Of a DNA stretch of 64,000 nt, positions 2,224 to 18,341 are shown one piece after another. The translations under genes and the position numbers were made by a program. Location of the stretch: IMG/VR virus record IMGVR_UViG_2681813455_000010, positions 1 through 64,000 of that record. One strand, given 5' to 3'. The notes under the pieces are model-generated. The model worked only from the letters and a program-made list of their open reading frames with translations, made no database searches and was not told where the DNA came from. Numbering within the stretch: the stretch's first letter is position 1; each line of letters opens with the position of its first letter. Origin of the DNA: a virus (Duplodnaviria > Heunggongvirae > Uroviricota > Caudoviricetes).

Positions 2224-2348
2224 TGCTGTGCAGCAAAGGGACTATTGCTTTGTCCCTTTGCTGCGATTATCTGATTACGGTACAGGCTGGAACTTAGATT
2301 TTCCGGCGTTCACGATACTTCATGTAACACTCAGGTTGAGTAATCTTC

Positions 2349-2873
2349 ATGAGTTTTCTTTTGCCGTGTGGTGGAATTATGAATAATATAGATTTATTAA
2401 AAACTATAACAAACTACAAAAAAATCAAAAATCCGGCATACCCGGCTCAGGAGAGTCTGTTAATACACTTATATATTAGAGTAAATGACAAAATCCAGAG
2501 TATTATAGAAAATGAATTGAGCGAGTATAGAATAAACACTTCAACATTTATGGTGTTAGTTTCATTATATATGTCTGATGATTATTGTCAGTCCCCTTCT
2601 GATATTTACAAGGAGTTACAATTCTCCAAAACAAACATCACACACATCATAGACAAATTAGAAAAAAAGAATATTGCCAAAAGAATTAATAATAAAAACG
2701 ATCGTCGAAGCAAAAGTATTTGCTTAACCCCTGACGGAGTTACACTTGCTCAAAAACTAATAAACACTCAAAATGTAATGCTAAAGAAAATCTGGAGCGG
2801 GCTATCAGATGATGAAATGAAAACATTTGAACTCGCCAACAAAAAATTATTATCAAACCTTAATGTTAATTGA
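2349..2873 (+). CDS. MarR/SlyA-like winged-helix transcriptional regulator (alternative start ATG 2379)
   Basis: 174-aa ORF, very AT-rich; wing-like motif DRRSKSICLTPDG recalled from MarR family; no search run. Confidence 0.45.
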   Translation: MSFLLPCGGIMNNIDLLKTITNYKKIKNPAYPAQESLLIHLYIRVNDKIQSIIENELSEYRINTSTFMVLVSLYMSDDYCQSPSDIYKELQFSKTNITHIIDKLEKKNIAKRINNKNDRRSKSICLTPDGVTLAQKLINTQNVMLKKIWSGLSDDEMKTFELANKKLLSNLNVN

Positions 2874-3307
2874 TGTTAAAACATACTAACAGTCATCTTC
2901 TTACAATGTATTCTTCTGGAGAGAATAACTACCAGAATATATAAAGACATTAATCACACTCTCATTTAATTACAATGAGCATAAGAGCCACCAATGTTTA
3001 TGCTGGTTAGGCTTTATATAGGAAACAATAAAAAAACGTCATTAAACAAAGCGTTTTTAATGGCGTTGTTATTTAAAAGAAAGATATCAAATATAGATTA
3101 ACCCCCATCGAATAAAGATGTTGTCTAATCATACCTGAAGGTATTTATCACTAGAATTTTATTTGTATAAATGGACATATACCATTGGAAGATTTAGAAA
3201 AGCATGTCCAGGAGTTTAAGGACAAATCTCATACTGATTATCGGAAGCTTTTATCATTATATGATTACCAAGCATACAATGTATAATTATATACACTATT
3301 ATTGTGA

Positions 3308-3646
3308 TTATAATTTGTTACTGTGCCACTCAAGGGCAATATCTTTGAAGGTGTTGTTTAACTGCGTTTCCCGGGCAATCTTTTCCTCTCGCTTCACTTC
3401 CATCAGATCGATTCCCCCAGAGATACCTCTTTTAGCTTCTTCAAGTTTTGCAGGAGCATCAGCTAAGGTGACCTCAGGATACACACCTAGTGCTAACAGC
3501 TTCTCTTTACCAGCTACACGATACTTGAGACGCCAATATTCTCCTCCACCAGGTTTTACCAGGAGGTACAGACCACCACCATCAGCCAACTTGTAAGCCT
3601 TCTCTTTTGGCTTGGCAGTGTCTATTTGACGGGCATTGAGTTTCAC
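3308..3646 (-). pseudogene. N-terminal remnant (~112 aa) of a P4-type tyrosine integrase (arm-binding domain), truncated
   Basis: Translation ..AKPKEKAYKLADGGGLYLLVKPGGGEYWRLKYR.. matches the conserved N-terminal arm-binding domain pattern of P4-family integrases; ORF ends after 112 codons with no catalytic domain; adjacent to tRNA-derived repeat at 3810. Confidence 0.6.
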
Positions 3647-3809
3647 TTGGGGGTATCTCCACTAAACTGAACAGCAAATCCCCTCAATTGCTTGTAGAGT
3701 TTGGGGTACTTAAATAGACGTCAAAAGACTAAAAGGGGCATTAATATACTGATTATAAGAGGTTTTTAAATACTTGAGTAGACTTGGGGAGACGTTAGAA
3801 TGGTGCCGA

Positions 3810-3829
3810 TAATAGGAGTAAAACACTCG
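3810..3829. repeat. 20-bp direct repeat ATGGTGCCGATAATAGGAGT (reverse complement of tRNA-Thr 3' end incl. CCA); putative att site
   Basis: Identical 20-mer recurs at 16377-16396; flanks integrase-containing element. Confidence 0.65.
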
Positions 3830-3905
3830 ATTAATCTCGTGTTAATGCCATCACCTACGACCATTACTAATTGATTGAATCTTATAGAAAAAATCATCAT
3901 TTTCT

Positions 3906-5240
3906 ATGCGTTACAATCAATTTTCACATTACAAACGCTCCGACACTTTAGCCGGGGAGTTTATGAGATACAAGCCCAATCAATACATAATCTGTGATTC
4001 TTACGGTAACTACTATTTAAGGATCACGCTGCCTGTGTATATGCAGCCCTTTTTTGAAGGAAAAAGGACGTTTGTCAGGAGTCTGCACACAAGTAATCTT
4101 CGTGTTGCACGTAGAAAGCGTGATCAGATTGCAGATGAATACCATTGCTTACGGGAGAGTGTCGCCCCTGTAAACAGCACAATAGAGAACACGCTGGAAC
4201 TGTTACGCAGTAAGGCTAAATACGCCAAAACAGCTACCAGAATGCAAGATACAGCGTCTTCGTGTCCGTCATTGCTTAAAATTCTTGAAATCTACCTGAC
4301 AATTAACAGCACGAAGAAGAAGCCAGCCACTTTAGCTAAGGCAAGAAAAGCGGTAGAGATGTTTCTCTCCTACCGTAAAAAGCCTGATATTGCATTGCAA
4401 GATGTGAGCCGCACCACTGTTACAGGCTGGATTGAACACATGCAAAAAACCCTTTCACAACAATCAATTGCAAATTATATCAGCCCAATGGCCCAGCTAT
4501 GGGAGTTAGCTTCATCACGTTACCACGATGCGCCAGAAAGGGCGCTCTCCCCCTGGCGAGGGCATAGGCTTGATGTGGCACAAAGTAGAGAGAGCTACGA
4601 GGCATTTTCTAACAAAGAGCTATTGCAGGTGTTGCAAGTATTTTCCGGTAATTCAGCAGAAAACAAAGAAATGATGGCTTTGTGTCTTATCGGTGCTTAT
4701 ACAGGTATGCGGATCAATGAGATAGCAAGTCTCACAATAGACGATGTGAAAGAGATCGAAGGTGTGCTGTGTTTTGAAATCACACAGGGAAAAACGAAAG
4801 CTGCGGCGCGTGTTGTGCCTGTACATAGCCTTATCACTCCGTTGGTGTTGTCGCTGCGTGAAAAGCCTCATAATGGCTTTTTGTTCTATCACGCCAGCAT
4901 TACAGAGCGTGCTGATGGTAAACGTTCCACGTGGCACACGCAGAGATTTACAAGAGCTAAACGAAAGGCTTTAGGGGAAAAGGGAACAGAAAGGAAAGTG
5001 TTTCATTCTCTGAGACACGGAGTAGCACAGCTTCTTGATCGAAATCAAATTCCAGAAGACAGGATCGCCCTTCTCCTGGGCCATACACGCGGCAATACAG
5101 AGACATTCCGCACATATAGCAAGAATGCAGCTTCTCCAGTAGAGCTTAAAAACTATATTGAGCTTCTACGCTACCCTGAAATAGAGAAAGGCTTATCAAT
5201 CAATAAAAAATCAAATTTAAGGCGTAAAACAACGCCATAG
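3906..5240 (+). CDS. int: tyrosine-type site-specific integrase
   Basis: 444-aa ORF with ATG start; C-terminal catalytic pattern ..HSLRHGVAQLL..LLGHTRGNTETFRTYSK.. (R..H..R/H..Y) typical of tyrosine recombinases. Confidence 0.75.
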   Translation: MRYNQFSHYKRSDTLAGEFMRYKPNQYIICDSYGNYYLRITLPVYMQPFFEGKRTFVRSLHTSNLRVARRKRDQIADEYHCLRESVAPVNSTIENTLELLRSKAKYAKTATRMQDTASSCPSLLKILEIYLTINSTKKKPATLAKARKAVEMFLSYRKKPDIALQDVSRTTVTGWIEHMQKTLSQQSIANYISPMAQLWELASSRYHDAPERALSPWRGHRLDVAQSRESYEAFSNKELLQVLQVFSGNSAENKEMMALCLIGAYTGMRINEIASLTIDDVKEIEGVLCFEITQGKTKAAARVVPVHSLITPLVLSLREKPHNGFLFYHASITERADGKRSTWHTQRFTRAKRKALGEKGTERKVFHSLRHGVAQLLDRNQIPEDRIALLLGHTRGNTETFRTYSKNAASPVELKNYIELLRYPEIEKGLSINKKSNLRRKTTP

Positions 5241-5320
5241 ACGCAATAAAGAGGCTTCAACATAATTGGTAGCCTCTTTTATAATTACATCGTTACAGAG
5301 CGTTTTAGAGGCGTTTACGG

Positions 5321-6034
5321 CTATTCCTGTTTAAAGGCAGGCGTAATAGTGTCTTCACCTTCACTACTTGATTTTTCAGTGTTAACACGTTTTTTCATAT
5401 TAGCCCCGATGTTCTTAGATGGCTGTGTTTTGAGAGCTACAGTGTTTACAGTGCCATACGACACTAATCTGATTTGCTCAAATTCCAAATCAAATACCAG
5501 AGATTCGCTTGCTTCTTCTGTGTATTCGATGCCTGTTAAAACAACGTTCTCAAAAGTTTTATTTTCTGTAACAAGAAGAAAAGGCTGTCTACTGTCCATA
5601 ATCTGATTTAGATAATCAATCGCTAATGATCTTCTGTTCCCGTTCACCCCTGCACTCTTTAACAAGCCAGGATCGCTTTTAATCGGTGTTTCAGTGATCC
5701 TTCCTTTAAGAGAAAACTTATTGTTTTTAATTTGAACGTGATCAGACACAGTAGCACCATTTTCTACGGGGTAGCTTGTGACATCTGCCGAACGTCTCAC
5801 GTTCACATCGTCTACACTGTCAAAGGCCAGTGCCATATAATTTTCATAAACGTCATTGCCAGAAGATGCCAAGCCACTGGTAACAATAGCAAATCCGTTC
5901 TCTCCTTTTGTTTTATTAGCTTTGCTATTTTCGTTTTTTGTAGAGTTTATATCTTGTTCTGCTTTGTAAACAGCCTGAACGTGTTGTTCTGGAGTATTTG
6001 CTGCACGTATGGTTAAAATCCCGGCGGTCGCCAT
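5321..6034 (-). CDS. hypothetical protein (237 aa)
   Basis: ATG start with AAGGAAA Shine-Dalgarno; co-directional with neighbouring gene block. Confidence 0.45.
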   Translation of the reverse strand: MATAGILTIRAANTPEQHVQAVYKAEQDINSTKNENSKANKTKGENGFAIVTSGLASSGNDVYENYMALAFDSVDDVNVRRSADVTSYPVENGATVSDHVQIKNNKFSLKGRITETPIKSDPGLLKSAGVNGNRRSLAIDYLNQIMDSRQPFLLVTENKTFENVVLTGIEYTEEASESLVFDLEFEQIRLVSYGTVNTVALKTQPSKNIGANMKKRVNTEKSSSEGEDTITPAFKQE

Positions 6035-6067
6035 AATAATAATTTCCTTGTAATGTTATGGCGGGAA

Positions 6068-7897
6068 TTACCCGCCGTTGGATTGTCCTGATAAGCTGGT
6101 TAATGTTAATGATTTCAAGAAGCTATCCCGACTTGCTCTCGCTGTAAAATCCACATAATCGCTTAATCTGGATGTGTCAGAATTAATAGTAAGAGGAACC
6201 TCTGTTACCACTTCAAATGTAGGATTCAGATTAAACACAGGAGATAAATTATAAGCCGGAGTTGTCATTGCAAGATTATTTAAAGCACCCTGTTTGAGAT
6301 TGGTTATCGGTGCTTCGCTGACTGACATTTTTACATCTGACACAGAAGATTTATCATCGAAAAGCAATCCCTTAATCGTATTAAATAGAGAATGACTATT
6401 ATCAGGTGTAGTTGTTGCAGTGCCAGCGCCTTTATATTGATCAGGAACGAGATTAGAAAGATTCTGTTTCATTCCTTCATTGCTTAATGGCGGTGCATCT
6501 CCCATATTTTTCTGAATAGCTTCCGTCTTATCATCATTACGATTAAACCAGTTTACAATCTTCATAATAGCTTCAAAGAGACTTCCTGTAGCTTCTCCCA
6601 GCTTCGTAAAATACGGAGTGAGATTAGAAAGGTTTTTCATAAACTCTTCCGTTACTTTTGGATCAAGAGATTTCATAAAGCCGTCTACGAATGCTACTTG
6701 TCTTGCATCAGAAAGCTGTGAAAGCTGTCTGTTTAGTTCTCTGAATTTAACGATAGATTCTTGCTGTGTTTCTGTTAGCCATTTTCCAGAGGCTTTTTGC
6801 TGATTAATACTTTCTTGTACATCTTTAACGGAACGTTGCCAATATTTTGACGTAAGCATCAAATCATCGCCCAGGTCTTCTAAACGTTGTCCAATTTGGG
6901 AGTCTGAAAACCCTTTTTTCATCATTCCATTAACAGCCTTAGAAATTAATCCGGCTGGATTATCAGCAAATTTTTTAAGGTCGCTTTTGTTAATAACACC
7001 GATGTTTAGAAGTTCATTAATAGCGTTATCACCGCCTTTCCATTCAGATTTTCCGGTTTTCTTATCTTTCACCAATTCAGCTTCACTGTAGGATTTTGCG
7101 GCACGTTCCCTAACATCTTTCATCTGATCCAGGTATTTTCTAGCCCCTTGATCACCCATCATAGAGTCAACGCCGTTTCTATAGGCCCATTCTGTAATGT
7201 TATACATCTGGTTAACGTCTACACCGCCCAGCTTGGCACGTTGAATTAGCTCACCTTGCGTGTCAGCGTTAGCGAAGCTATTAGCCATAAATTCAGCGGT
7301 TTTGCTTGCAGCCATCACGCCAGCCGCCGCTGTAGCGCCTCCAAATAACAGAGCGCCCATAGTGGCGGAATTCCCTGATCCTCCCTTAACGGGGGCTAAT
7401 TGAGCTTTTCTGTTGCCATTAATCTTACGTTGTTGCTGTTGTAAGCGTTTCATCTGGCTATTCATACGTGCAAGCGAGATAGCCCCTTGCTCATATTGTT
7501 TCGCTATCTCTCTAGCCTGTGCAATAGCTTTATATTGTTCCGCTACAGAGAGGCGGTGCATTGCACTAATGCTTGATCCAACGTCTAAAAGCTTTAGTTC
7601 AGCTTTCTCCTTACGTGCTGCTATTTGTTGCTGTTGCCTTGCCTGTGCTCTTGCTGCGGCAGCTTGTGCTCTTTGATTCTGTTTTTCTGTTTTAGCTTTC
7701 TGTTGAGCAATCTTGTCTACTTCGCTTTGTGCTTTCTTATAGCCTTTAGTGACATTATCAAACCTCAGTTTAGCTGGCTTGATATTATCAGTGAATTCTT
7801 TTAGGCTTGTAATAGAGTCTTTCGCTTTTTTCAAGCTGTCTTTATCTACACTAAATGTAACTGTGTTCTTAATTTTAGAAGTGTTAATTTCTAACAT
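6068..7897 (-). CDS. hypothetical coiled-coil protein (609 aa) with Gln/Ala-rich helix and Gly/Ala-rich hydrophobic segment; tape-measure-like or scaffold-like (speculative)
   Basis: ATG start with AGGGGA SD; long heptad-like Q/A/R-rich stretch and GALLFGGATAAAGVMAAS segment. Confidence 0.5.
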   Translation of the reverse strand: MLEINTSKIKNTVTFSVDKDSLKKAKDSITSLKEFTDNIKPAKLRFDNVTKGYKKAQSEVDKIAQQKAKTEKQNQRAQAAAARAQARQQQQIAARKEKAELKLLDVGSSISAMHRLSVAEQYKAIAQAREIAKQYEQGAISLARMNSQMKRLQQQQRKINGNRKAQLAPVKGGSGNSATMGALLFGGATAAAGVMAASKTAEFMANSFANADTQGELIQRAKLGGVDVNQMYNITEWAYRNGVDSMMGDQGARKYLDQMKDVRERAAKSYSEAELVKDKKTGKSEWKGGDNAINELLNIGVINKSDLKKFADNPAGLISKAVNGMMKKGFSDSQIGQRLEDLGDDLMLTSKYWQRSVKDVQESINQQKASGKWLTETQQESIVKFRELNRQLSQLSDARQVAFVDGFMKSLDPKVTEEFMKNLSNLTPYFTKLGEATGSLFEAIMKIVNWFNRNDDKTEAIQKNMGDAPPLSNEGMKQNLSNLVPDQYKGAGTATTTPDNSHSLFNTIKGLLFDDKSSVSDVKMSVSEAPITNLKQGALNNLAMTTPAYNLSPVFNLNPTFEVVTEVPLTINSDTSRLSDYVDFTARASRDSFLKSLTLTSLSGQSNGG

Positions 7898-7911
7898 TTA
7901 AAATCCCCTTA

Positions 7912-8115
7912 TTAATCATTTTTATCACCTTCTTTACTTAAGAAATGGTGTAGAGCCTGATCAATACTCTCGTTTAATCTGAACATACGGGCTTTTACTC
8001 CTTCATATGGAACATCTAAAAGAGAACAGAGATATTTCAGATTTAACAAGCCTCTAGAATCATTAGCATCTAGATGTACGTGCACACCATTTTTTGATTT
8101 CAAAATCACTTCCAT
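7912..8115 (-). CDS. hypothetical protein (67 aa)
   Basis: Short ORF tightly packed between neighbouring minus-strand genes. Confidence 0.35.
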   Translation of the reverse strand: MEVILKSKNGVHVHLDANDSRGLLNLKYLCSLLDVPYEGVKARMFRLNESIDQALHHFLSKEGDKND

Positions 8116-8201
8116 ATTTTAATCACCTCTCAAAATTTAAAAATAAATAAAAAAAAGGCGAAGCGTGAATACACGCCACGCCTCTATTACACGTTAAAAT
8201 A

Positions 8202-9230
8202 TTATTTAACAGTGATTTGAACGGAGAAGCCTACACCGTGGTTTACAACCATCTGGCTATTCTCTGTAACAACGTTAACAGCATCACCACGAGAAGATTC
8301 ATAGCTGTAGCTATAGACCTCAGTAGGGGCGGCATTGATCAGTTCAAAGGTGCTGGAAGCAGCCCCGTAGATGTTCTGATATACGTTAGAGCCTTTAGCG
8401 AATTTAGGCACAGCTACAGCGTCTGCGGTCATATGTGCCAGGTGTAGCGGATCTACCAGTTTAATAACATCAATGTTAGTTCCTGGAATAGTGAACGCTG
8501 TCACTCCTGGCAGCAGGTCACGACGCTGATACACAACGTTCCCTTCTTCCAGTGGGCTTACATACTGGAATGCGTTTGCCATACCAGCAGAGAATCGAAT
8601 TGCAGAGAAGGCGTCAGGTTTACAGAAAACAACAATACGCTCTACAGCAGCCGCCTGACTCTGTGCTTTTTCAATAATATCAGTAGCAATCTGATCAAAT
8701 TCTTTAAAAATCTTCGTGGTGTCAGTGCTGGAAGCGTTCACAGTGGCTTTCATAGCTGATACGTTAAACAGCTTGCCCCACTCAATTAACACATCATCAG
8801 TTTTCGGTGTGTAAGTTTTACCGCTAAACAGAGATGCAGCTAGCACGCTCTCTTTTGTACGCTGATACGCTACGTGATGTTTTGCAACATAGTCAGCATA
8901 GATATCAGTGAGTGTTTCCTGAAAATCAGTGCCAGGCTTACGCTTGCCTTGAACATCAGAAGGACGGATCACATCTTCACGAAGAAAATACGGGATTTCA
9001 ATCAGCCATTCTTTACCTTGTTCTCGCTTAGTAACATTGTGTTCAGAAGAGAAACGAGAGGTTTCTTTGTTGAACAGAGATTCGTTGCTTTCGACAAGCT
9101 GGGAAACAGCTACTTTATGAGATGTAACCCCTACAGAATCCGTAAAATCAAGAGTAGAAAGCAGATAGTTTCTAGTGCTATGCGCAGAGAACAGAGGAGC
9201 TAAATCAACGTAATCATTACCTAGAATCAT
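8202..9230 (-). CDS. hypothetical protein (342 aa); possible major capsid protein of lambda gpE-like family (weak, pattern-based)
   Basis: ATG start with AAGGA SD; size and C-terminal half pattern (..RIVVFCKPDAFSAIRF.., ..VVY..) loosely resemble lambda gpE; no search run. Confidence 0.5.
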   Translation of the reverse strand: MILGNDYVDLAPLFSAHSTRNYLLSTLDFTDSVGVTSHKVAVSQLVESNESLFNKETSRFSSEHNVTKREQGKEWLIEIPYFLREDVIRPSDVQGKRKPGTDFQETLTDIYADYVAKHHVAYQRTKESVLAASLFSGKTYTPKTDDVLIEWGKLFNVSAMKATVNASSTDTTKIFKEFDQIATDIIEKAQSQAAAVERIVVFCKPDAFSAIRFSAGMANAFQYVSPLEEGNVVYQRRDLLPGVTAFTIPGTNIDVIKLVDPLHLAHMTADAVAVPKFAKGSNVYQNIYGAASSTFELINAAPTEVYSYSYESSRGDAVNVVTENSQMVVNHGVGFSVQITVK

Positions 9231-9248
9231 TTATTATTATTCCTTTTA

Positions 9249-9611
9249 TTAAGAAGTGAAAACCGTATTAAAGCCTTCAAGCTGGAAGCCTTTTTTAATT
9301 AATGCTGTTTTTGCTGCTTCACTTACAGCATTCAGGGCATCAGCTTTAATGCACACAAGGCCAGCATTGCTACGTAGCACATCTACAGGCTTGTTTTCTC
9401 CTGCCGTTACAAATTCACTCATAACAACATAGATATCATCTCCTGATTCATATTTAGCGCCCGTGCTTGTGATCAAGTCGCCACACTCAACATCAGCAGG
9501 AAGAGAAGCAAAAACCTTGCTTTCTACAGAGGCAAACGGATCAGTACAATAACTTACAATATCTGTGAAAGTCTTTCTAACTGGAAACAGAGTGTCTAAA
9601 TCAATAATCAT
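9249..9611 (-). CDS. hypothetical protein (120 aa); possible head decoration-like protein (position-based guess)
   Basis: ATG start with AAGGAGA SD; immediately upstream of capsid-like gene. Confidence 0.4.
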   Translation of the reverse strand: MIIDLDTLFPVRKTFTDIVSYCTDPFASVESKVFASLPADVECGDLITSTGAKYESGDDIYVVMSEFVTAGENKPVDVLRSNAGLVCIKADALNAVSEAAKTALIKKGFQLEGFNTVFTS

Positions 9612-9820
9612 TTAGTAATCTCCTTAGCTTTTAATTTGATTAATTCATTAAGGGAAGGTGTAGACGGAGAAGAAGGAGAAAAATATTTTTCAACACATCT
9701 TTCTACTTCCTCTACAGAACACCCAGCGTATTTAGCTACCATTTCGGTAATTTGTGGATTAATTTTCAGCATTTCATCTTTATACTTGATGATTTGCTCT
9801 TTATCATTTAAGAACAACAT
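9608..9820 (-). CDS. hypothetical protein (70 aa)
   Basis: ATG start, 4-bp overlap with downstream gene (coupling). Confidence 0.4.
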   Translation of the reverse strand: MLFLNDKEQIIKYKDEMLKINPQITEMVAKYAGCSVEEVERCVEKYFSPSSPSTPSLNELIKLKAKEITK

Positions 9821-10169
9821 TTATATAAACCTTGTTACCTTGTTTAAAGTAAGAAATACAACTTTTAAGTTGCATAACGGGCAAAATAAAAGGCAGCATT
9901 TAGAGCCGCCTTTTATTAACTTGTACCTATGTAATTACCCTATGTTATGCATACTCCAAGATGTATGCATAACAAAGGAAAAAAGAGGTAATAATGACAC
10001 AGTATTACTTAAGGAGGAGAAGCGGGGAGCGGAGATTTTACTCCCCTTTAACGACAAGAAGAATTTTTAATATCGAACCAATAAAGGAAAAATAATCACC
10101 CCTATATAATTATATTAACATACAATAGATGAAATGTCAAGATATTTTACAACTTTTTTGTTGCTTTTT

Positions 10170-10538
10170 TTATTCTTCTGTGATAGTAGCGCCTAAGCGT
10201 TGAGCTAGTTCAACAAGGCCATCTCCCACATAGCGAACATCAGATTCAATATCTTCTATCCAGTTTGAGAGACTCCATATCTGATCCGCTGTCAGATATG
10301 CGTTCTCACGCTTACAGAGCATCTCTACACGCTTAGAGAGGTGCTCAAAGGCATTCACAGCTAAATCCCAGTGTTTAAACGCCTCATTGAGTGCCGCTGG
10401 CGTGTTTTCTCTGTATGCTTCAAGTTCAGCACGGTTTAAAGGCAGGAGGTAATCATCCTCATAATAATTAATTAGTGAGTAAATTGTGTCATACGTGTTT
10501 TTGTTCATATTAAAAGTCTCCATAGTGATCAGCACCAT
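10170..10538 (-). CDS. hypothetical protein (122 aa)
   Basis: ORF in co-directional block; overlaps upstream gene end. Confidence 0.4.
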   Translation of the reverse strand: MVLITMETFNMNKNTYDTIYSLINYYEDDYLLPLNRAELEAYRENTPAALNEAFKHWDLAVNAFEHLSKRVEMLCKRENAYLTADQIWSLSNWIEDIESDVRYVGDGLVELAQRLGATITEE

Positions 10539-10920
10539 CTAAAATTTGGAATTCAGGGACTAAATTATTTAGGCCATTGGTGGCGAGATAACCGACGTAG
10601 TGATTATAATCTTCAAATCCTAAAATCTGGTATTTGCGTAAATCAGAGCTATCAACGATATACTCTTTTCTTTTTCTAGGTTTCCAGAATACGCCAGGTG
10701 TTGAAGATAAGATTTCTTGTAAGGCGTTAAATTCATCTCCACAAGGCACAGAGGGAGAATGTTCTATGATCTCTGTTTTCCATTCGCCAGGGGCGCTATT
10801 TTGCTTGGTGAGCGTAACTAGCTCTTTAAAGTCTTTACGTCTTAGAATAGATTTAGGTTTACTTAGAAGAGAAGCTGAATCACCGATTTTCTTAACAACG
10901 TTGTTTTTTCTTTTTGCCAT
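10510..10920 (-). CDS. hypothetical protein (136 aa), basic N-terminus
   Basis: ORF in co-directional block. Confidence 0.4.
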   Translation of the reverse strand: MAKRKNNVVKKIGDSASLLSKPKSILRRKDFKELVTLTKQNSAPGEWKTEIIEHSPSVPCGDEFNALQEILSSTPGVFWKPRKRKEYIVDSSDLRKYQILGFEDYNHYVGYLATNGLNNLVPEFQILDGADHYGDF

Positions 10921-11052
10921 TATTTACTTTTCCTTTTCTTTTAAAGGAAAACACCCCGAAATATGCTTCTAACGTGATAAAGAACAATAACCAATACATA
11001 GCTACTATCATAATAATGTTTTCCTTTTATATTTTAATTACATAGAGAGATT

Positions 11053-11331
11053 TTAGAGAGTGGAATAGATGAAGTCTATTTCTTTATCCAGTCTTTTGAG
11101 ATTGAATGTAGAGAAAGATAATTCTTTAATCTCTATAACACCGAAATTTGATAGCTGTCTAAGCCAGAATTTTAAACCATCTTCAGAGCACCCTGCTCGA
11201 TGTAACACATCGCTATATTTTAGCGGTGTTGGCTTTCCTTTATAGAGGTAAGCAAGTGTTTCATAGATGCGTTTTCCTGTGTCATTACACTGAATTCTGT
11301 CTACTTGATTTTTTACTAAATATTGAATCAT
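11053..11331 (-). CDS. hypothetical small DNA-binding-like protein (92 aa)
   Basis: ORF in co-directional block; helix-turn-helix-like middle segment (guess). Confidence 0.35.
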   Translation of the reverse strand: MIQYLVKNQVDRIQCNDTGKRIYETLAYLYKGKPTPLKYSDVLHRAGCSEDGLKFWLRQLSNFGVIEIKELSFSTFNLKRLDKEIDFIYSTL

Positions 11332-11342
11332 AACCCTCCTTA

Positions 11343-12035
11343 TTAAAATGGAATATCAAAGTCTTCATATACTTTGGGATGTTTCTTAGCAAAATATGCC
11401 TCAATACCATTTGGTCGTTTTAGCCCGTATCTACAAGCTAGTGAATTTGCAAACTCAATAAATGATGCCCCTGCTGTTCTGGTATTCTTCTGCTGGCAGA
11501 TAAGAGAGGCAAAATTCTCTAACACATCCTCCTCATTATCATTAGCTACCTTTTCATTTGATGAAACAGGTGTTTCTTCCGTCTCCCACGGCAAAGGCGT
11601 ATCCCAATCATCATCAAGAACATCAAAAGAAGGCTGTTTATGGCCTTTAGGTTGTTCCTGTGCTTCTTCTGCCTCAGAAAGATCAGAGAGTGATGATTCT
11701 CCTGGGGGAGTAATATGTGCATCTGTGAGAGGGAGAGCATTGTAAATCAAAGATGAAATATACGGATCAGGATGTGGGGATGTTTCTAATAATCCCATCT
11801 CTTTAAGATCGTTTATCTTACGTTTAATTGTTGACGATGAAGACTTAAAAATCTTAGCTAATGTTTCGTGACTTTCATAACAATTAAGGTTGTTTTCCTG
11901 ATAACTAAGGAATCGAAAATAAAGCACAATATGTAATAGATCTAAATCTTTTCCTTGAGGGAATTTATCAGAATAAATCTTTGATACATTATCAAACGTG
12001 TCATAGTGTTTTGTAAAAGTTAGTTGATTAATCAT
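11343..12035 (-). CDS. hypothetical protein (230 aa) with N-terminal winged-helix-like segment and acidic linker; candidate replication or regulatory protein
   Basis: ATG start with AAGGAGA SD; ..ETLAKIFKSSSSTIKRKINDLKEMGLLE.. resembles wHTH. Confidence 0.45.
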   Translation of the reverse strand: MINQLTFTKHYDTFDNVSKIYSDKFPQGKDLDLLHIVLYFRFLSYQENNLNCYESHETLAKIFKSSSSTIKRKINDLKEMGLLETSPHPDPYISSLIYNALPLTDAHITPPGESSLSDLSEAEEAQEQPKGHKQPSFDVLDDDWDTPLPWETEETPVSSNEKVANDNEEDVLENFASLICQQKNTRTAGASFIEFANSLACRYGLKRPNGIEAYFAKKHPKVYEDFDIPF

Positions 12036-12086
12036 TAAAAATCTCCTTATAAATCACGCTTAATGCGCTACTAAAGTGAATGAGGA

Positions 12087-12254
12087 TCACTTACCCTTTT
12101 TTTGTTTGATGTTCTCTGCTGCTTCAGTAATGATTTCTAACATCAAATCACTGACCATAATTTGCCTTTTCTTGGCTTCAGCAAATAAAACCTTGAAGAT
12201 TTCAGGGTCAACGTGTAGGTAAGTGCGCGGAATTGGTTTCTTAGTTTCGCTCAT
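12087..12254 (-). CDS. small ribbon-helix-helix-like protein (55 aa)
   Basis: ATG 12254 with AGGAG SD; translation MSETKKPIPRTYLHVDPEIFKVLFAEAKKRQIMVSDLMLEIITEAAENIKQKKGK; below ORF-track cutoff, found by eye. Confidence 0.4.
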   Translation of the reverse strand: MSETKKPIPRTYLHVDPEIFKVLFAEAKKRQIMVSDLMLEIITEAAENIKQKKGK

Positions 12255-12273
12255 AGTTTTCTCCTTCTATTCT

Positions 12274-12462
12274 TTACTCTGTTTCAGATTCTTTTTCATT
12301 TTTTCTTAGTTCATCAATAATCTTGAGTGCTTCATTGAAGCAAGCTGCTCGTTCTGGATAACCTCGACTCCTTGCCATATTACGATTCATTACTACTTGA
12401 TGGCGTGTAAGCTCACCTTTTTTAAATGCCTGGATGACGTGCTCAGGTGTAAACCATTTCAT
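12274..12462 (-). CDS. hypothetical protein (62 aa)
   Basis: Short ORF adjacent to RHH gene. Confidence 0.3.
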   Translation of the reverse strand: MKWFTPEHVIQAFKKGELTRHQVVMNRNMARSRGYPERAACFNEALKIIDELRKNEKESETE

Positions 12463-13221
12463 AAAAAACTCCTTATTCAGTTAAAAGAAAAACACCTTGC
12501 AAGCCTGACGGCTTCAAAGTGCATTGATTTTGATTATTTAGAGAAGAATGTTTTTCTGTCCCTCTAATACCTATTATTACATATAAAGAAACATTTGTCA
12601 ATACCTTTTCACAAAAAATCTGATCTTTTTCATGCACTTACATTTTTTCTTAGCAATTCGTGCTCTTCTGTGTAGTGCTATTCTTCATTATTGTCTAAAA
12701 CGCTCTAAAACGCGTTCTAACGAGATTTTGATAAAAGCAATACATTCCCTTATGTAATGGCTGTTTAGCTCGCCAGAGGCTTATTTAAGGGGCTTATTTT
12801 GTATTTGTTAGGTATATGAAAAGGTAATGGTAGATATAAGATAGAGAGTCACTTTATAAAACGCTCTGTAAAGCCCTGTAGTGAGCTTATATATGTAGGC
12901 AATGCGTTTCCATTCCCTACCCTGCTTAATGCTGTTAGAGAAGCATTTAGACCCCTTATTTTTAATTAATTAAAGTATCCTCTATACATTCCTGTTATGA
13001 AACACCTCTGAATCCTTCATAAAACACATTATGACGCAAAGAACACTTTTCTAAGGTGATTCCCTTTCTGAACTCTGTTTCTTGCGTCAAAGAGCTACAC
13101 AGAGTTTATAAAGCTATTATTAATAATAAAGTAGATAAAGTAAGTAAGATAACTAAGATAGATAAGATTAATAAGATCAGAATTCTCTTTCGGTGTCGCC
13201 TCTGGCTTTTCCACCGAAAAC

Positions 13222-13384
13222 AATTACACGACTACAGAATGTAGGAAGTGGAATTGTATTGAGGCTTAGTGAAATTACACGAGGAAAGCAGAGTGTAATT
13301 GAGCTTTAGCCGCTCTCTCTTCGAGTAATTACACAACTACAGAGAATAACGAGAGTTATTAAGTGTAGGAGGGTAATTACGAGG
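13222..13384. repeat. cluster of 4-5 AATTACAC(G/A)A-containing repeats (two 17-bp near-identical copies at 13222-13238 and 13327-13343)
   Basis: Read directly: aattacacgactacaga / aattacacgagg / aattacacaactacaga / aattacgagg. Confidence 0.6.
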
Positions 13385-13620
13385 TAGAGAGATAGAGTTA
13401 ACACATAAGCAATCTATGATTGGTTAGGTGATTACTCTTCTGCGCACAGCGCAATAGTATTTCTTCGTGGGCGTTACCGCCAACGATAGTTACACGAAGA
13501 AAGTAACGCTTTGCTTTCGGTGTGAGCGGAACGGGCCAGCCAACGTAGCCCGAAAGGTAGCGGAGTAAGGCTGCTTGCCAGAGAGTGAAGCTAACGCCGG
13601 AAGGCAAAAGATCATATATA

Positions 13621-13821
13621 TATATAGATATAAAGAATATTATTATTATGATCTAATTAATAATCTAATATAGTTTTATTAATAGTCTTATTGTAGTTCA
13701 CAGTGACCTACCCCCTAGCTCACTATGACCTACCCCCTAGCTCATAGTGAACTACCCCCCTAGTTCACAGTGACCTACCCCCTAGGTCACAGTGACCTAT
13801 ATAGATATAAAGAATATTATT
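13621..13821. repeat. iteron array: ~4.5 tandem 22-bp repeats (TCACAGTGACCTACCCCCTAGC type, 13698-13800) bracketed by 24-bp AT-rich direct repeats (13621-13644 and 13798-13821); putative plasmid-type replication origin
   Basis: Tandem near-identical 22-mers read directly; flanking TATATAGATATAAAGAATATTATT duplicated; extra iteron copy near 13975-13990. Confidence 0.7.
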
Positions 13822-13872
13822 TAATTATTATTTAATTATTCTTATTAACTTATTCTTATCGGGTATCAGTTT

Positions 13873-13957
13873 TGATAGGGGTAGGGGTATCAATATTGAT
13901 AGGGGTATCATCGGTTTATTATTCTTTATAAACCCCTGTTAGACTTGATAGGGGTAA
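13873..13957. repeat. three to four TGATAGGGGTA repeats
   Basis: ttgataggggta recurring at ~13873, ~13896, ~13946. Confidence 0.55.
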
Positions 13958-14644
13958 CAGAATTCTGTGGGGGTAGCTCACAGTGACCTACCGTTACTAC
14001 CAACTTTCTTACAGAGAGCATTTCAGATAGCTGAATGTAACCTCTCGTTACATCCATTTGTCACATAGCACTCTGTGTAATGCCTTTCTATGTGTGTGCC
14101 ATAATCCCCCCTATATTCCCTGTGTAAATCATAGAATATCCCTAACTTATTCCTGTGTAATTCCATACTAAAAATTAAATGAAAAGTAGCTTAAAAGTGC
14201 AATTCTTACTTTCTTCACTTTTACATCACTTTCGCAAAGCCTTGTGTAGTGCGGCTTACAGAGCACTATCAGAAATTGTTGGCTAAAAAATGTTCTGCTT
14301 GTTTCTTAATGAGTTCTCTCGTTTGTGCAAATTTTAAAATTTATTTTGTTTTTACAGCCTTATTTCGTGTAATGCGTGGCATAGCAAGCCCTTTTCTTGT
14401 GTTGTCAAGACATTTGGCAACGTTCAAACATCTGTTTAGAAATGCCAAATTGTTGATCTAACAAATAAACCTGTATAAACAGAACACCATTTAATCTATC
14501 CCCCTGTGTATCCATTAGGCATACCAAATGAATACAGTTAAATCGTGTAATATTCCGTACCTATAAGGCTTGAAACAGACCAAATGAATACGGTATACTC
14601 ATTTGCATTGAAGTAGTGCCAAATCGATACATTAAGGGGCTTTT

Positions 14645-15184
14645 ATGAGCAATATCGGTTATAAGCGTGTGAGCACTGTAGATCAGAACACTGATCGCCA
14701 GCTTGCAGGAGTAACTCTCGATAAAGTCTTTGAAGATAAGCTGTCTGGTAAAGACACTAACCGTCCAGGCTTACAAGCGTGTTTAGCCTATCTGAGAGAA
14801 GGCGACACCTTACACGTGCACTCTCTCGACCGTTTAGGACGTAACACCTTAGACATCCTTGCTTTAGTTGAACAACTTAATAATCGAGGTGTGATTGTTC
14901 GATTTCACAAAGAAGGGATCATTGCAGACATTACAAGCGCGATGGGAAAAATGATGCTTACTATGTTGTCGGCAGTGGCAACGTGTGAACGTGAACTGAT
15001 GCTAGAACGTAAACGAGAAGCGCAAGCCGTCAATCCTACAAAGCGTGGTAAAGGTAAAGCAGTAGATAGAGAAGGTATAAAGAAAGCCCTTTCTGATGGC
15101 GTGTCAGTGCGTAAAACCGCCGAGATCTTTAATGTTGCTCCTTCAACGGTGCAACGTATCAAGAAGGAAGAAGAGGAGGCGTAA
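14645..15184 (+). CDS. serine recombinase (resolvase/invertase family)
   Basis: 179 aa; N-terminal YKRVSTVDQ motif with catalytic Ser, C-terminal HTH; ATG start. Confidence 0.8.
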   Translation: MSNIGYKRVSTVDQNTDRQLAGVTLDKVFEDKLSGKDTNRPGLQACLAYLREGDTLHVHSLDRLGRNTLDILALVEQLNNRGVIVRFHKEGIIADITSAMGKMMLTMLSAVATCERELMLERKREAQAVNPTKRGKGKAVDREGIKKALSDGVSVRKTAEIFNVAPSTVQRIKKEEEEA

Positions 15185-16376
15185 TGCCTCCTTGATATTT
15201 GGGGATTCTGGATTTTCCAGATCGGGGGGCGCTGAAAATCGCGTTAAGCACCTCTCGCAATCTAGCCATAAGGGAGGGGATATAGGTATTAAGATGTATT
15301 TATAGCTATTTATGGCTATTTATTTTTTATTTACCTTTATTTAAAAATAACCTTATAAATCAATAAGATACAGAACTATCTGTTTATATTTTAACCAATT
15401 AAATCAAGTTTAATACCCTTAAATAACCTGAAAATAGCCTTAAATACCCCAATAATTAATTTTAAGGCTTTCCGTGTTCTCTCCTGCATTATGAAAATGC
15501 AAAATAAGGCACAAAACAAGCTCACAGACGCATTAAACACACATCACCTATACATCCCTATACCAAGCAATGAAAACAGCGTTAGAATGCGTCCTGTTGC
15601 GCTCTGGAGATTTTCAGAAATCCTCTCTAAGCCATTTCAACTCACTAAGGAGTTTTCTTTCTTCGTTCTCTCGTTGCTTTCGCTCTAGCCAGGCTTTTCC
15701 TTCTGGCGTAGACAGGAACTTACGAGCGTGAATCTTGCGGTTATTCCGTTTGATAGCTGCAATGTTTTTCATCGTGTGCCTCTGTATTCATATGAAAATT
15801 AACAAGTTACATACTACACAGGGAGACTACGCATAAAACACAATACAAGTAAAGATACATTTTCAAGACAATAGGAGCCATAAAGCGCCTTTGATGGTTA
15901 TACCAAAAAATAAGCGCCGTAGGCGTATCCACTAAAAAGGGCTTTTTCACAAAAGCTATGAAGTCTTAGCAGTTCTTCTCTTATCAGGCACCCGTTGTAC
16001 TCCGGTGGACGAAACCGTGCTAGAGCTTGATTCTTTCCCGATCAAGTTAGGTTTTGAAGAGGTGGGCTTTAATCCACTATTGCACTTAAAACTCTTCCCA
16101 TCATTTAGCCTGTTTATCCTCTGCAACGTCTCACGACGTGTAGCATCATTGGACACCGCGCCAGGTGTGGAACATCTTGCTAAGAGTTTTGGTAGAAGGT
16201 TTAGAGACGGTGGCACGTCTTCCAGCTTCAAAGGAACTTGTTACGAGGTTGAGCCTGGGAACTACTCGCCCATACGTGTTACACTACCAAAGCCCATAAC
16301 AACGTATAGGCGTTTGTAAGTGATAACAGAAGATACAATTTCTTAGAGAAGTTAAGCTAAGTTATTGATTTTCTTG

Positions 16377-16396
16377 ATGGTGCCGATAATAGGAGT
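16377..16396. repeat. second copy of 20-bp direct repeat ATGGTGCCGATAATAGGAGT (att)
   Basis: Identical to 3810-3829. Confidence 0.65.
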
Positions 16397-16422
16397 CGAA
16401 CCTACGACCTTCGCATTACGAA
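16378..16422 (-). tRNA. tRNA-Thr (anticodon CGU, thrW-like) 3' 45-nt fragment (anticodon loop to CCA); not a complete gene
   Basis: Reverse complement TTCGTAATGCGAAGGTCGTAGGTTCGACTCCTATTATCGGCACCA has a T-arm (GTAGG/TTCGACT/CCTAT), acceptor 3' strand and CCA; sequence beyond 16422 cannot pair as acceptor/D-arm. Confidence 0.6.
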
Positions 16423-16761
16423 TTATAAGAATCCGTTTCTAATTCAAAGAATTACCCCATAAACACTGCGCTCACACGTCCCACCACATCAAAACATGTA
16501 AAGCCTTGCAAGCCATTGTGAGGCCTTATGTGTCTCAGTTTTGTCCCACCTTGTATTACGACTTGCATAGCCGATGAAGATAAACGCGACGACAAACGGC
16601 GCAGCAGTCTTCCTTTCTTTCACGACTTCCCCATCCCAAGCATGCATACCTTTCCGCCATAACTGTAGTGAATGTCTGTTATGAGCGAATTGAGGACGTA
16701 ACACTAGCAATTGCTGCTGGTTTGGAGCGTAGCAGAAAACCAGTTCGACAAAATTCGGTTG

Positions 16762-17802
16762 TTAGGCCTTTTTTAAGTACTCTCTCTGAATATTATTTGT
16801 AAGTTCAATTCTGTTAATCTCATTTGGGGTAAAAACCAAATTAACAAAACCCGCTTGTGCAGCGTGTAATTCCCCAGTATTTTCTATTTTCCCCTGCGAT
16901 TTTAACTCATATTCTAATGCATGGATGAGCTGTACCAATTTTTTACCCCTAGAAGTGAGTGGTGCCATAAAAGATGGCTGTCTATAACGATCATACCATT
17001 CAATCATGCATTCAGAAAAATCAATATCAGCTATATGTTGATGCACGATGAACTTTATATACTCAAACAAAAAATTTTGTTCTGAATCACCGACTCCGAT
17101 TCCAAAAGGTAAATTTTGATTATCCATTTCAATTTCTGCTATTCCTAATGCCATATCCATACCAAAATATAAAGATCGTCCGGCATTAGTTAGGCCAGTA
17201 CAGAAAAGATTGAAATATGAGACAGGAAATGAAGCATTGTTACTCTCAGTCTTAATCAAATAGTCTAGGATAGCTTCGACAGACATGATGTCTTGATCTA
17301 AAATCGCAAATCCTTCAAAGAGTTTTTTAGCACTGGTCAATTGCAAGACATTTGATTTGGGTATGGTAATACCCTTTGCATCAGTTGTCTTGGAAACTCT
17401 TAATGCATGGCGAACATCTTGCCAATAACTTAAATTTGTTTCTGGGTTGTGAATAATAATAAGCACAGGCAATGGAAATCTTTCCCAGTAAAATCGATGC
17501 TTCTCTTCCGGGTAGAAAATCCAATATCCATTACTTTCCTTAAAAAAGGACACCCCTGACTTTATTTGAACGGCTATTATCCTTCCTGTAGCAAAACCCT
17601 CGGGACTGACATACTCAATCTGACCATCAATTCCAACGTCAGCCATCGGAGTTTCACGCCAAATCTGGCCAATTTTGGCCATTGCTTCCGCTACAGCATT
17701 TACACCCAATCTTTCTTGAGAATTAGTCTGGTTATATTTTGGGAAATTCATATTTTTTCTCAATCGCATGACACTGGCAACATTTCCTTCAAAATCTGGC
17801 AC
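16762..17802 (-). CDS. DUF4365-like (restriction-endonuclease-fold) N-terminal domain protein with unknown C-terminal domain; candidate defence protein. Start uncertain (GTG 17802, ATG 17769 or 17751)
   Basis: N-terminus ..ERLGVNAVAEAMAKIGQIWRETPMADVGIDGQIEYV..IAVQIKSG.. matches recalled DUF4365 pattern with D...E.K-like residues; AT-rich. Confidence 0.45.
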   Translation of the reverse strand: MPDFEGNVASVMRLRKNMNFPKYNQTNSQERLGVNAVAEAMAKIGQIWRETPMADVGIDGQIEYVSPEGFATGRIIAVQIKSGVSFFKESNGYWIFYPEEKHRFYWERFPLPVLIIIHNPETNLSYWQDVRHALRVSKTTDAKGITIPKSNVLQLTSAKKLFEGFAILDQDIMSVEAILDYLIKTESNNASFPVSYFNLFCTGLTNAGRSLYFGMDMALGIAEIEMDNQNLPFGIGVGDSEQNFLFEYIKFIVHQHIADIDFSECMIEWYDRYRQPSFMAPLTSRGKKLVQLIHALEYELKSQGKIENTGELHAAQAGFVNLVFTPNEINRIELTNNIQREYLKKA

Positions 17803-18050
17803 GAAATTTCGCCAGAAATTTAAGTTTAGGTTTGTGGCCCATTGCTGACTTTCAATAGGTTTCTACTCAAACAAAGAAAACAATCCAAACAACCCGGTAC
17901 TGTCTATTTTTGAGTGTTCGAAAATCAACTCATAGTTATTGACTATTTATTTCTCCAGTGATTTTGTAACTTTTTTGGGGCACTGTAAAGTCACATCAGA
18001 CGAAGATTGTTCGTTTTTGGCATAGGGCTGCTGTTGCAACCCTGACAACC

Positions 18051-18341
18051 TTAGACTTCAACCGATTCAGAGATCTCTAACGCATCATCAACTTCAATGC
18101 CCAGATAACGGACTGTGCTTTCCAGTTTCTTATGGCCCAACAGAAGTTGGATCACCCAGAGATTCTTGGTTTTCTTGTAGATCAGGTAAGGTTTTGTTTT
18201 TCTCATGGAATGTGTGCTGTAAAGCGAATCTTCGAGACCAAGCTTTTCTACCCACCCATGAAAGATTCGGTTGTATTGCCGGGTTGATATGTGCCGATTA
18301 GTTCCGATCCGAGACCGGAACAAGAAGTCTTTACTATGCAA
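18051..18341 (-). pseudogene. C-terminal remnant (~96 aa) of a tyrosine recombinase/integrase
   Basis: ..HSMRKT..LLGHKKLESTVRYLG.. = conserved H-x-x-R / LLGH / Y catalytic box; no N-terminal domain upstream. Confidence 0.6.

Follow-up and report, generated by a model that had tools for sequence, protein, structure and literature searches.

The best-studied pairing of a satellite with a virulent phage is at present that of PLE, an element of Vibrio cholerae resembling phage-inducible chromosomal islands, with phage ICP1. ICP1 encodes Odn, in which a domain resembling RepA_N of PLE is fused to a T5orf172 domain and which cleaves the PLE origin at its iterons (PMC8263062). Here we describe an integrative element of 12,577 bp found in the first 64,000 nucleotides of the IMG/VR virus record IMGVR_UViG_2681813455_000010 (this whole stretch is called the window), and compare it with this and other satellite systems. 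The element is probably a phage satellite, belonging to a family of ~12-13-kb integrative elements of Enterobacterales whose helpers would be virulent Stephanstirmvirinae of ~148 kb, Justusliebigvirus in the case of this copy. As judged from sequence, this is the best reading of its combination of features, which fits a satellite of virulent Stephanstirmvirinae better than any rival explanation. With more reserve, we lean towards regarding the family as the first described in Enterobacterales to live on virulent ~150-kb myoviruses. By a mode of hijacking for which no earlier example is known, it would supply the shell and the proteins that start and measure the tail, borrow portal and terminase, and carry a swappable mimic of the helper's genome end; it would also be engaged in an arms race like that of PLE and ICP1, with bivalent origin-directed nucleases on one side and escape by exchange of the Rep domain and iterons on the other. 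The searchable literature on satellites of phi92, Justusliebigvirus, Phapecoctavirus, Stephanstirmvirinae and Vequintavirinae, which leaves out subscription-only papers, yielded no earlier description.

As read from its junctions, the element is a discrete mobile insertion at the tRNA-Thr gene thrW, and it carries its own integrase. It is flanked by 20-bp direct repeats, ATGGTGCCGATAATAGGAGT, which correspond to the 3' end of thrW on the minus strand.

3800..3819, no strand: left attachment (att) core, a 20-bp direct repeat identical to the thrW 3' end in minus-strand reading.
16377..16396, no strand: right att core, running on to 16425 as a 47-nt thrW fragment.
3906..5240 (RefSeq start 3964), plus strand: tyrosine integrase, with Pfam Phage_integrase (2.9e-17), DUF6538 and a SAM-like domain, and a match to the phrog_1 integrase (4e-33).

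A synthetic empty junction was matched in one piece by 127 complete Escherichia coli genomes, and the alignment of the empty site gives an exact junction with one copy of the repeat. Strain 20KM2762 carries the same element (~95% identical) at an intact thrW beside proA, and between the two copies the non-coding regions are as conserved as the genes. ARAGORN detected no intact tRNA in the window. The original prediction, made from the letters of the window, had outlined an att-bounded element with a tyrosine integrase, a minus-strand operon at 5321-12462 and regulators of the winged helix-turn-helix (wHTH) and ribbon-helix-helix (RHH) types, all of which are present at about those positions. 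It had also judged correctly that the element resembles neither a standard prophage, nor a P4-like satellite, nor a simple integrated plasmid.

The genes that tie the element to a particular group of phages are those of its virion proteins. Only three recognisable ones appear to be encoded, each related to a counterpart in phage phi92.

8202..9230, minus strand: major capsid protein, 342 aa; Pfam Phage_cap_E, E 8.5e-15; HK97 fold by AlphaFold2 (AF2) and Foldseek.
6068..7897, minus strand: tape-measure homologue, 609 aa; phrog_16051, 1e-53; PDB 21vq_V.
5321..6034, minus strand: tail-tube initiator (Dit-like) homologue, 237 aa; Pfam Dit_like, 3.7e-29.

The 342-aa protein belongs to Phage_cap_E with 55 bits (cut-off 22.9), and Foldseek matches its AF2 model (pLDDT 61.6) to capsid proteins from PhiTE, Sf14, Bas63 and ICP1, at E-values of 1e-11 to 1e-8 and TM-scores of 0.54-0.59. 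It aligns end to end with phi92 gp124 at 21% identity, among phage proteins it is matched best by the capsids of lytic myoviruses of the Pseudomonas and Felix-O1-like kinds, and it groups in a clade of lytic-myovirus capsids. The 609-aa protein is collinear with phi92 gp134 (659 aa; BLASTP E 4e-34), 55% identical over its N-terminal 66 aa and 28% over the C-terminal 460 residues, with a coiled-coil stretch about 70 residues shorter; the first 98 nt of its gene are 84% identical to phage VEcB. The 237-aa protein scores 101.8 bits against the Dit-like family PF21821 (cut-off 24.2) and shares 59-62% identity with gp135 of phi92 as well as with the Justusliebigvirus and Phapecoctavirus orthologues. 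Its PDB matches are 21vq_N (phi92 gp135, present in the solved phi92 entry 21vq; 2e-79) and the tube initiators 9cuy_K, 7yfz_a and Pam3 gp17. Gene order mirrors phi92 twice, once as small protein-capsid (gp123-gp124) and once as small protein-tape measure-tube initiator (gp133-gp134-gp135). The phi92-type relatives are virulent ~148-kb myoviruses of Stephanstirmvirinae (Justusliebigvirus and Phapecoctavirus), without integrases and ten times larger than the element.

The original prediction had seen weak capsid features in the 342-aa protein, now borne out by its family and its HK97-fold match (E 1e-11), and had called the 609-aa product a coiled-coil/Gly-rich protein, which is present and turns out to be a tape-measure homologue. 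It had proposed comparing the 342-, 609-, 237- and 120-aa proteins with virion families: the first three match such families, while the 120-aa protein matches neither gp123 nor a PDB entry. Its remark that no terminase or portal is recognisable also holds, Pfam, PHROGs and NCBIfam finding no terminase, portal, protease, tube, sheath or lysis gene in the element. With virion, packaging and lysis genes so incomplete, the element would need a helper.

A complete-looking lambdoid prophage occupies ~26,600-64,000 of the window, 7 kb from the element. It has a terminase, a portal, an S49 protease, a gpD/gpE-type head and a gpH/gpJ-type tail, together with a Q-type antiterminator, O/P-type replication genes, Red/Gam and an integrase at the window end.

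One reading would make the element a variant of the chromosomal islands inducible by phage (PICI) or of their capsid-forming type (cf-PICI), mobilised by a temperate phage such as this prophage. They have in common an overall plan with an integrase, regulators, a replication module and a capsid gene, E. coli is rich in both kinds of island (PMC10085698), and the complete-looking prophage lies close by. This reading is nevertheless very unlikely. The SatelliteFinder model (PMC10085698) recognises cf-PICI by portal, head-tail adaptor, connector and terL, none of which is found by Pfam, PHROGs or NCBIfam, and terS and a protease are missing as well. AlpA, the primase-replicase and the small terminase or capsid-size redirection gene of PICI were not detected either, the one initiator present being of a different type. 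Both models exclude elements with tail genes, and this element has two, encoding the tape-measure and Dit-like proteins. All specific matches are to virulent Stephanstirmvirinae, whereas no protein or DNA similarity to the prophage of the same window was found at E<0.01; on this ground the prophage, which the original prediction had suggested inducing as the helper, was rejected in that role.

A reused helper packaging signal is expected of a satellite, and two segments on either side of a recombinase gene appear to provide it.

14411..14460, plus strand: block A, matching phi92 nt 135-184, a conserved block inside the terminal repeat, with the palindrome TTGGCA, 23 nt, TGCCAA.
14645..15184, plus strand: small serine recombinase of invertase/resolvase type; Pfam Resolvase, 6e-34; phrog_125, 2e-55.
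15188..15266, plus strand: block B, which copies phi92 nt 285-363, where the helper terminal repeat has its right boundary.

Window positions 15221-15266 equal phi92 318-363 at 44 of 46 nucleotides, the sole strong DNA match of the element to a whole Justusliebigvirus genome besides the two tail genes. As the phi92 repeat is annotated as nt 1-343, this match straddles its right boundary and places the equivalent of the phage end between 15246 and 15247. The block B match recurs in 62 of 50,697 phage records, all of them Stephanstirmvirinae-type genomes, and lies at nt ~318-363 in those records that start at the genome terminus. The palindrome of block A is conserved among phi92-type phages. 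Since block B is unstructured in single-strand folding and block A palindromic, both look like protein-binding sites.

Blocks A and/or B stand beside a small recombinase in relatives from Klebsiella, Enterobacter, Citrobacter, Cronobacter and Dryocola, block A itself being found in the last four of these genera as well, and the block of the Klebsiella element aligns best with the versions of Klebsiella phages. Outside Escherichia, the serine recombinase is replaced by a non-orthologous tyrosine recombinase of 183-205 aa, and so is exchanged but not lost. The conserved feature is therefore a small site-specific recombinase beside the packaging-signal mimic, not a plasmid resolvase. Three CCAAATGAATAC(A/G)GT repeats at 14525-14640 overlap the promoter just upstream of the serine recombinase gene, and look like a res-like binding and autoregulation site of that enzyme.

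The closest informative relative is locus L017, from Escherichia sp. E1V33, which is ~94% identical to the window over the capsid-to-Rep genes and 83-99% over the rest. Detectable similarity is absent at three places: in rep over its initial ~130 codons (11641-12025), in a portion of the iteron array, and at 15207-15619, where the greater part of block B lies. In place of block B, L017 has a segment that is 83% identical over 79 nt to 65 Phapecoctavirus-type phages; it matches nt 277-357 of phage BI-EHEC, whose record holds a second copy elsewhere. The window and L017 are thus two nearly identical elements with end-signal mimics of two helper genera.

In their matches to block B and to the proteins for tape measure and tube initiator, four records labelled as Campylobacter phages (MG065639, MG065645, MG065656 and MG065689) reach the identities seen with E. 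coli Justusliebigvirus; their genomes are ~146 kb and similar to Justusliebigvirus, and the labels look wrong.

The other two places at which L017 departs from the window belong to what appears to be a private replication module, formed by a wHTH initiator and an iteron array.

11343..12035, minus strand: replication initiator (Rep), 230 aa, matching the initiators phrog_270/428/391, down to 1.6e-9 (phrog_270); Pfam HTH_36.
11641-12035, minus strand: N-terminal wHTH DNA-binding domain of Rep, ~codons 1-131, an exchangeable module, replaced in L017.
12087..12254, minus strand: p55, a small protein of RHH-like type, to which phage muut gp095 is 100% identical.
13693..13992, no strand: replication origin, with six ~20-nt iterons (TAGTTCACAGTGACCTACC) at 22-nt spacing and AT-rich repeat flanks.

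The iterons lie at 13693-13801 and 13973-13992, and two leftover palindromes of another iteron type are found at 13861-13907. L017 and an Enterobacter element have a common Rep type and common iterons, and the window differs from them in both; iteron type follows Rep type (L017, L014). Between two ~95% identical copies, the window and L016, a 220-bp indel falls within the iteron array (window 13757-13973), and iteron number is strain-variable.

Some helper-type phages carry genes that are, by their sequence, copied from these elements. Window positions 12028-12266, spanning p55 and the start of rep, match Justusliebigvirus muut over 239 nt at 99.6% identity (megablast), and the match to phage inny is similar. 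The next gene after the p55 copy encodes a protein of 332 aa in muut (gp094) and of 367 aa in inny (inny_184), composed of two tandem initiator wHTH domains and a C-terminal endonuclease domain; the gene pairs lie at 119446-120769 of inny (L025) and at 81039-82256 of muut (L026). In these chimeric proteins Pfam finds HTH_36 twice, MUG113 at 22.3-22.5 bits (cut-off 22.3) and T5orf172 at E 0.025, while PHROGs gives the endonuclease phrog_681 at 4e-18. Their homologues are annotated as GIY-YIG or homing endonucleases, and no PDB sequence match was obtained.

The DNA-binding domains point to several satellite alleles. Residues 1-140 of inny_184 are 88% identical to the Rep of L019, and residues 1-133 of muut gp094 are 89% identical to that of L017 and 66-69% to the Enterobacter and Citrobacter alleles. 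The second wHTH domain of both proteins is 75% identical to the Rep of L013. The Rep of the window is 32-34% identical to the phage wHTH domains, with inny as its sole match in the phage collection. Phage VEcB is without the p55/nuclease gene pair, and the full double-wHTH endonuclease architecture occurs in four of the 50,697 phage records, sporadically. inny_184 and muut gp094 thus appear Odn-like, each joining a DNA-binding domain homologous to satellite initiators to a predicted T5orf172/GIY-YIG-type domain. Taken together, the phage nucleases and the swaps of Rep domain and iterons argue for a current conflict between phage and element inside the same cells.

Capsid proteins of this family form 53 clusters, spread over E. 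coli, Citrobacter, Klebsiella, Enterobacter, Cronobacter, Dryocola, Sodalis and Serratia, and every capsid-gene copy whose context was examined is chromosomal. Eleven further loci share one ~12-13-kb architecture. It comprises an integrase, an optional Dit-like gene, a tape-measure-like gene (613-650 aa), in nearly all a ~62-aa protein, the capsid protein and proteins of ~120 and ~70 aa, followed by a long leader, small proteins, the initiator, small regulators, the non-coding origin region and a small recombinase. The integrase is of tyrosine type in nine of the ten relative loci that reach that end, and a large serine recombinase takes its place in Sodalis. A scan of species-representative genomes gave four loci only; the family context comes mainly from exact-protein look-ups. 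Among 5,426 complete E. coli genomes, 334 (about 6%) have the capsid gene, in up to three copies and 388 in total, each of them chromosomal, and the 50,697-record phage collection holds no record with the element. L018, a contig labelled as a metagenome-assembled genome of Bacillota, carries an E. coli-type copy, and its label looks wrong.

This distribution bears on two other explanations. The element might be a decayed prophage remnant, a cryptic island whose left-over structural genes serve no present function. It does have degraded thrW islands arrayed in tandem around it, with a truncated integrase to either side, and RefSeq annotates scattered phage genes only. Yet all its genes are intact, the compact 12-13-kb architecture is kept from E. 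coli to Serratia and Sodalis, and presence and absence are precise. The related phages, moreover, are virulent, integrase-free and of ten times its size, and its non-coding regions are conserved like the genes, with compensatory changes. We hold a remnant to be even less probable than a PICI variant.

The iteron array, the initiator and the small resolvase-type recombinase could also be those of an integrated plasmid or phage-plasmid, with the recombinase in charge of multimer resolution. The original prediction had spoken of a plasmid-like origin and resolvase and had offered, as its two possibilities, a capsid-encoding satellite or a phage-plasmid-like element. It located the components well, with ~2 kb of repeat-dense non-coding DNA (12463-14644, containing the iterons) followed by the serine resolvase. 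Their plasmid character did not stand, since the iterons go with a wHTH initiator inside the operon, as in a PICI- or PLE-like replication module, and the resolvase is swapped for a tyrosine recombinase in other genera. The element was to be sought in other genomes in both forms: integrated copies were found, but the 72,556 plasmid records searched contain no complete element, with two partial matches, one of them in a 4.9-Mb record of chromosome-typical size. None of the 388 capsid-gene copies in complete E. coli genomes is on a plasmid, and neither partition nor conjugation nor mobilisation genes were found in the element. The plasmid form was rejected on these counts, and a plasmid origin is the least probable of all the explanations considered here; of the two possibilities, the capsid-encoding satellite is the one supported, and it can now be stated far more specifically.

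If the element is a satellite, its cycle can be pictured as follows. Upon infection by the helper, it would be excised by its integrase and replicated from the iterons by Rep, while the structural module would be expressed from a conserved strong promoter through a long leader. Its own capsid protein would build small heads on the helper portal, and by analogy with P4 and the Staphylococcus aureus pathogenicity islands (SaPI) a 12.6-kb genome would fit a shell of T=4 size. The helper terminase would recognise blocks A and B and cut at the boundary mimic, after which the heads would join helper tails, perhaps started and measured by the satellite tube initiator and the slightly shorter tape measure. 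After injection, the small recombinase and/or the integrase would recircularise and integrate the DNA; a role of the small recombinase in circularisation, in the manner of Cre, is speculation by analogy. As portals, terminase and tails would be diverted, helper yield should fall. Some phages would answer with a chimeric nuclease aimed at the satellite origin, and satellites would escape by exchanging the Rep DNA-binding domain together with the iterons.

Several points weigh against this reading. Induction, excision, replication, packaging and transfer are all inferred from sequence. Portal, scaffold, protease and small terminase are not encoded, and we know of no precedent for a capsid protein 21% identical to the helper's assembling on the helper portal. 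The tape measure and the tube initiator may serve satellite particles or sabotage helper tails, and the tube initiator is absent from some relatives. Only the right boundary of the terminal repeat and an internal block are copied, as the left boundary (the junction of CTATTTGTTG and AGC repeats) gave chance-level matches alone, and the 343-bp length of the direct terminal repeat of phi92 (nt 1-343) is that of the record annotation. Blocks A and B were undetected in five relatives (L009, L013, L015, L022 and L024). The endonuclease domain of the phage proteins is borderline in Pfam, at 22.3 bits for a cut-off of 22.3. Lastly, the operon promoters are strong and of sigma-70 type, and neither a repressor nor an inducer was identified.

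A rival reading is a defence island that does not itself spread in particles. Its virion homologues would act as dominant-negative decoys against the assembly of phi92-like phages, its repeat mimic would titrate or misdirect the terminase, and it would spread by other means. The homologues do cover only steps at which assembly could be blocked by a wrong subunit, mobile elements are known to carry systems that interfere with tail assembly (PMC11364771), and the phage counter-measure shows conflict, not transfer. A full-length HK97-fold capsid gene with conserved 120- and 70-aa companions, a private replicon, an integrase and a genus-switching end signal, however, are what a packaged element needs and go beyond the needs of a decoy. 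The family also extends across many genera with precise att sites, and no known defence family was matched. We therefore regard a defence island as unlikely and retain the satellite as the preferred reading.

The remaining features mostly concern the control of the minus-strand operon (5321-12462) and its small conserved genes.

12573..12601, minus strand: operon promoter, near-consensus sigma-70 (TTGACA, 17 nt, AATAAT, with TG; 11 of 12 matches).
12274..12462, minus strand: p62, the first operon gene; a small first gene of 54-77 aa stands at the same position in most relatives.
10170..11331, minus strand: three conserved small genes (122, 136 and 92 aa), with genes of comparable size at these positions in most relatives.
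9821..10169, minus strand: regulatory region of the structural module, with a consensus sigma-70 promoter near 10130-10160 (TTGACA, 17 nt, TAATAT), then a ~300-nt leader with terminator-like hairpins.
9608..9820, minus strand: p70, a conserved 70-aa protein whose gene opens the structural module; it measures 66-74 aa in every relative.
9249..9611, minus strand: p120, a conserved 120-aa protein encoded directly upstream of the capsid gene, where phi92 has its decoration protein gp123; the family is restricted to these elements.
8130..8175, minus strand: terminator-like hairpin and T-run, directly 3' of the capsid gene, read from the sequence.
7912..8115, minus strand: p67, a conserved 67-aa protein whose gene lies between those of the capsid and the tape measure; nearly all relatives, L015 excepted, have it at 59-64 aa.
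15614..15772, minus strand: 52-aa open reading frame annotated by RefSeq, with no family match.
13236..13625, plus strand: structured non-coding segment of 390 nt adjoining the iterons, with a three-way junction at ~13461-13503.

In the order of transcription, the operon consists of p62, p55, Rep, the 92-, 136- and 122-aa proteins, a 350-nt regulatory gap, p70, p120, the capsid protein, a terminator, p67, the tape measure and the Dit-like protein, and a further terminator lies 3' of the last gene. The 122-, 136- and 92-aa proteins matched no family and no defence system, and PADLOC found no defence system in the element. p67 has no family match and no similarity to phi92 gp133. For p120, no similarity to gp123 was detected, profile comparison included, and its AF2 model, built on a 22-sequence alignment, was unusable (pLDDT 39.6); it is a candidate decoration or scaffold protein by gene position only.

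The structural-module promoter, TTGACA, 14 nt, TGTTAATAT, is kept in seven of eight aligned family members, covering seven genera; L013, a second E. coli variant, is without it at the aligned position. It heads a poorly conserved leader of 300-700 nt in the window and in the equivalents in L007, L009, L014, L015, L021 and L024, an arrangement that hints at control by termination/antitermination or by a leader RNA. No helper-specific promoter was found in the element; none is evident because phi92 structural genes, like those of the element, are preceded by consensus sigma-70-type promoters. The whole minus-strand operon is bracketed, at 5276-5317 and 12696-12737, by an inverted repeat of 42 nt, imperfect and containing the motif TAAAACGCTCT; a further copy lies at 12857, and the repeat may be the binding site of a regulator.

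Within the non-coding region of ~2.2 kb (12463-14644), the segment 13236-13625 contains motifs conserved across genera and folds much better than its shuffles (z-scores: plus strand -6.8, minus strand -5.4). In seven sequences from six genera, 96.9% of the cells of the three-way junction are paired and 12 of its 15 pairs show compensatory changes, a level reached by none of 500 shuffles, in counts from a hand-made alignment that biases them towards structure. RNAalifold on an automatic MAFFT alignment of this region returned almost nothing, and Rfam gave no family in the element at E<=0.1 above noise. The segment is possibly a new regulatory RNA or a single-strand DNA priming signal.

As for its surroundings, the window is E. 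coli chromosome, 100% identical to that of the blood isolate SF-468, with the thrW/vat island region followed by the lambdoid prophage. The element lies within a tandem array of thrW islands, the intact thrW being outside the window. Besides vat, which RefSeq shows as frameshifted, positions 1-3650 hold a regulator of MarR type and an Arm-domain integrase in truncated form; positions 16379-23000 contain a DUF4365 protein and large hypothetical proteins in addition to the 47-nt thrW fragment and another truncated integrase.

Phages of the phi92-like and Phapecoctavirus kinds are frequent candidates for therapy of infections with extraintestinal pathogenic (ExPEC), avian pathogenic (APEC) and K1 E. 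coli. If the satellite reading is true, about 6% of complete E. coli genomes harbour an element that exploits, and probably inhibits, such phages, which would bear on their host range and on therapy failure. It would also explain the recurrent, uninterpreted thrW island beside the vat virulence locus, and would offer an E. coli model of the conflict between satellites and virulent phages. The strategy of Odn, a nuclease made from the origin-binding domain of the parasite, would then have arisen independently, as a case of convergence. A capsid protein, a tape measure and a tube initiator without a portal would, in turn, raise the new questions of how a heterologous capsid protein is nucleated on a foreign portal and of why a satellite would re-measure the tail.

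Set against the described satellites, the element shares with P4 a size of ~12 kb, an integrase for a tRNA site, the reuse of a helper packaging signal (cos in P4, the terminal-repeat boundary here) and, presumably, capsids of small size to suit a small genome. P4 itself lacks a capsid gene, however, and relies on the external scaffold Sid acting on P2 gpN. Neither its primase-helicase (alpha), Psu, Delta and Epsilon, nor any other match to the P4-like core list (psu-delta-sid operon, alpA, epsilon, alpha primase; PMC10085698) was found in the element. With cf-PICI, it has in common the integrative way of life, a size of ~12-15 kb and an HK97-fold capsid protein of its own. The cf-PICI encode portal, protease, head-tail adaptor/connector, terS and terL, and take only tails from temperate helpers (PMC10085698), whereas the element is without that head and packaging set, has two tail-initiation genes and is tied to virulent helpers with terminal repeats. 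The PICMI are likewise small-genome satellites of virulent phages found by genomics, their helpers being Vibrio phages; according to the abstract that describes them they lack capsid-remodelling genes, while the element has three virion-protein homologues.

The closest likeness is to PLE and ICP1. In both systems a chromosomal satellite faces a virulent myovirus, the initiator and iterons form a private replicon in which DNA-binding domain and origin are swapped together as one module, and the phage possesses a chimeric nuclease that joins a DNA-binding domain like that of the satellite Rep to a T5orf172 domain (Odn, PMC8263062), here predicted from the sequence. As with Odn, the E. coli phage proteins place a satellite-initiator-derived domain before a T5orf172/GIY-YIG-type endonuclease, and the gene is sporadic among similar phages; they differ from it in having two tandem wHTH domains, from two Rep alleles instead of one, in being preceded by a p55 copy and in that their nuclease activity is predicted. 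The satellites themselves are built differently. PLE makes small capsids from the ICP1 coat protein with the external scaffold TcaP and has no capsid gene, whereas the element brings along genes of its own for a capsid protein, a tape measure and a tube initiator. Its integrase is a tyrosine recombinase, its initiator is of HTH_36/phrog_270 type, its phage matches are all Stephanstirmvirinae, and no PLE-type component appears among its family matches. Although it lacks the defining features of cf-PICI, PICI, P4-like satellites and PLE alike, the element appears to work most like a PLE.

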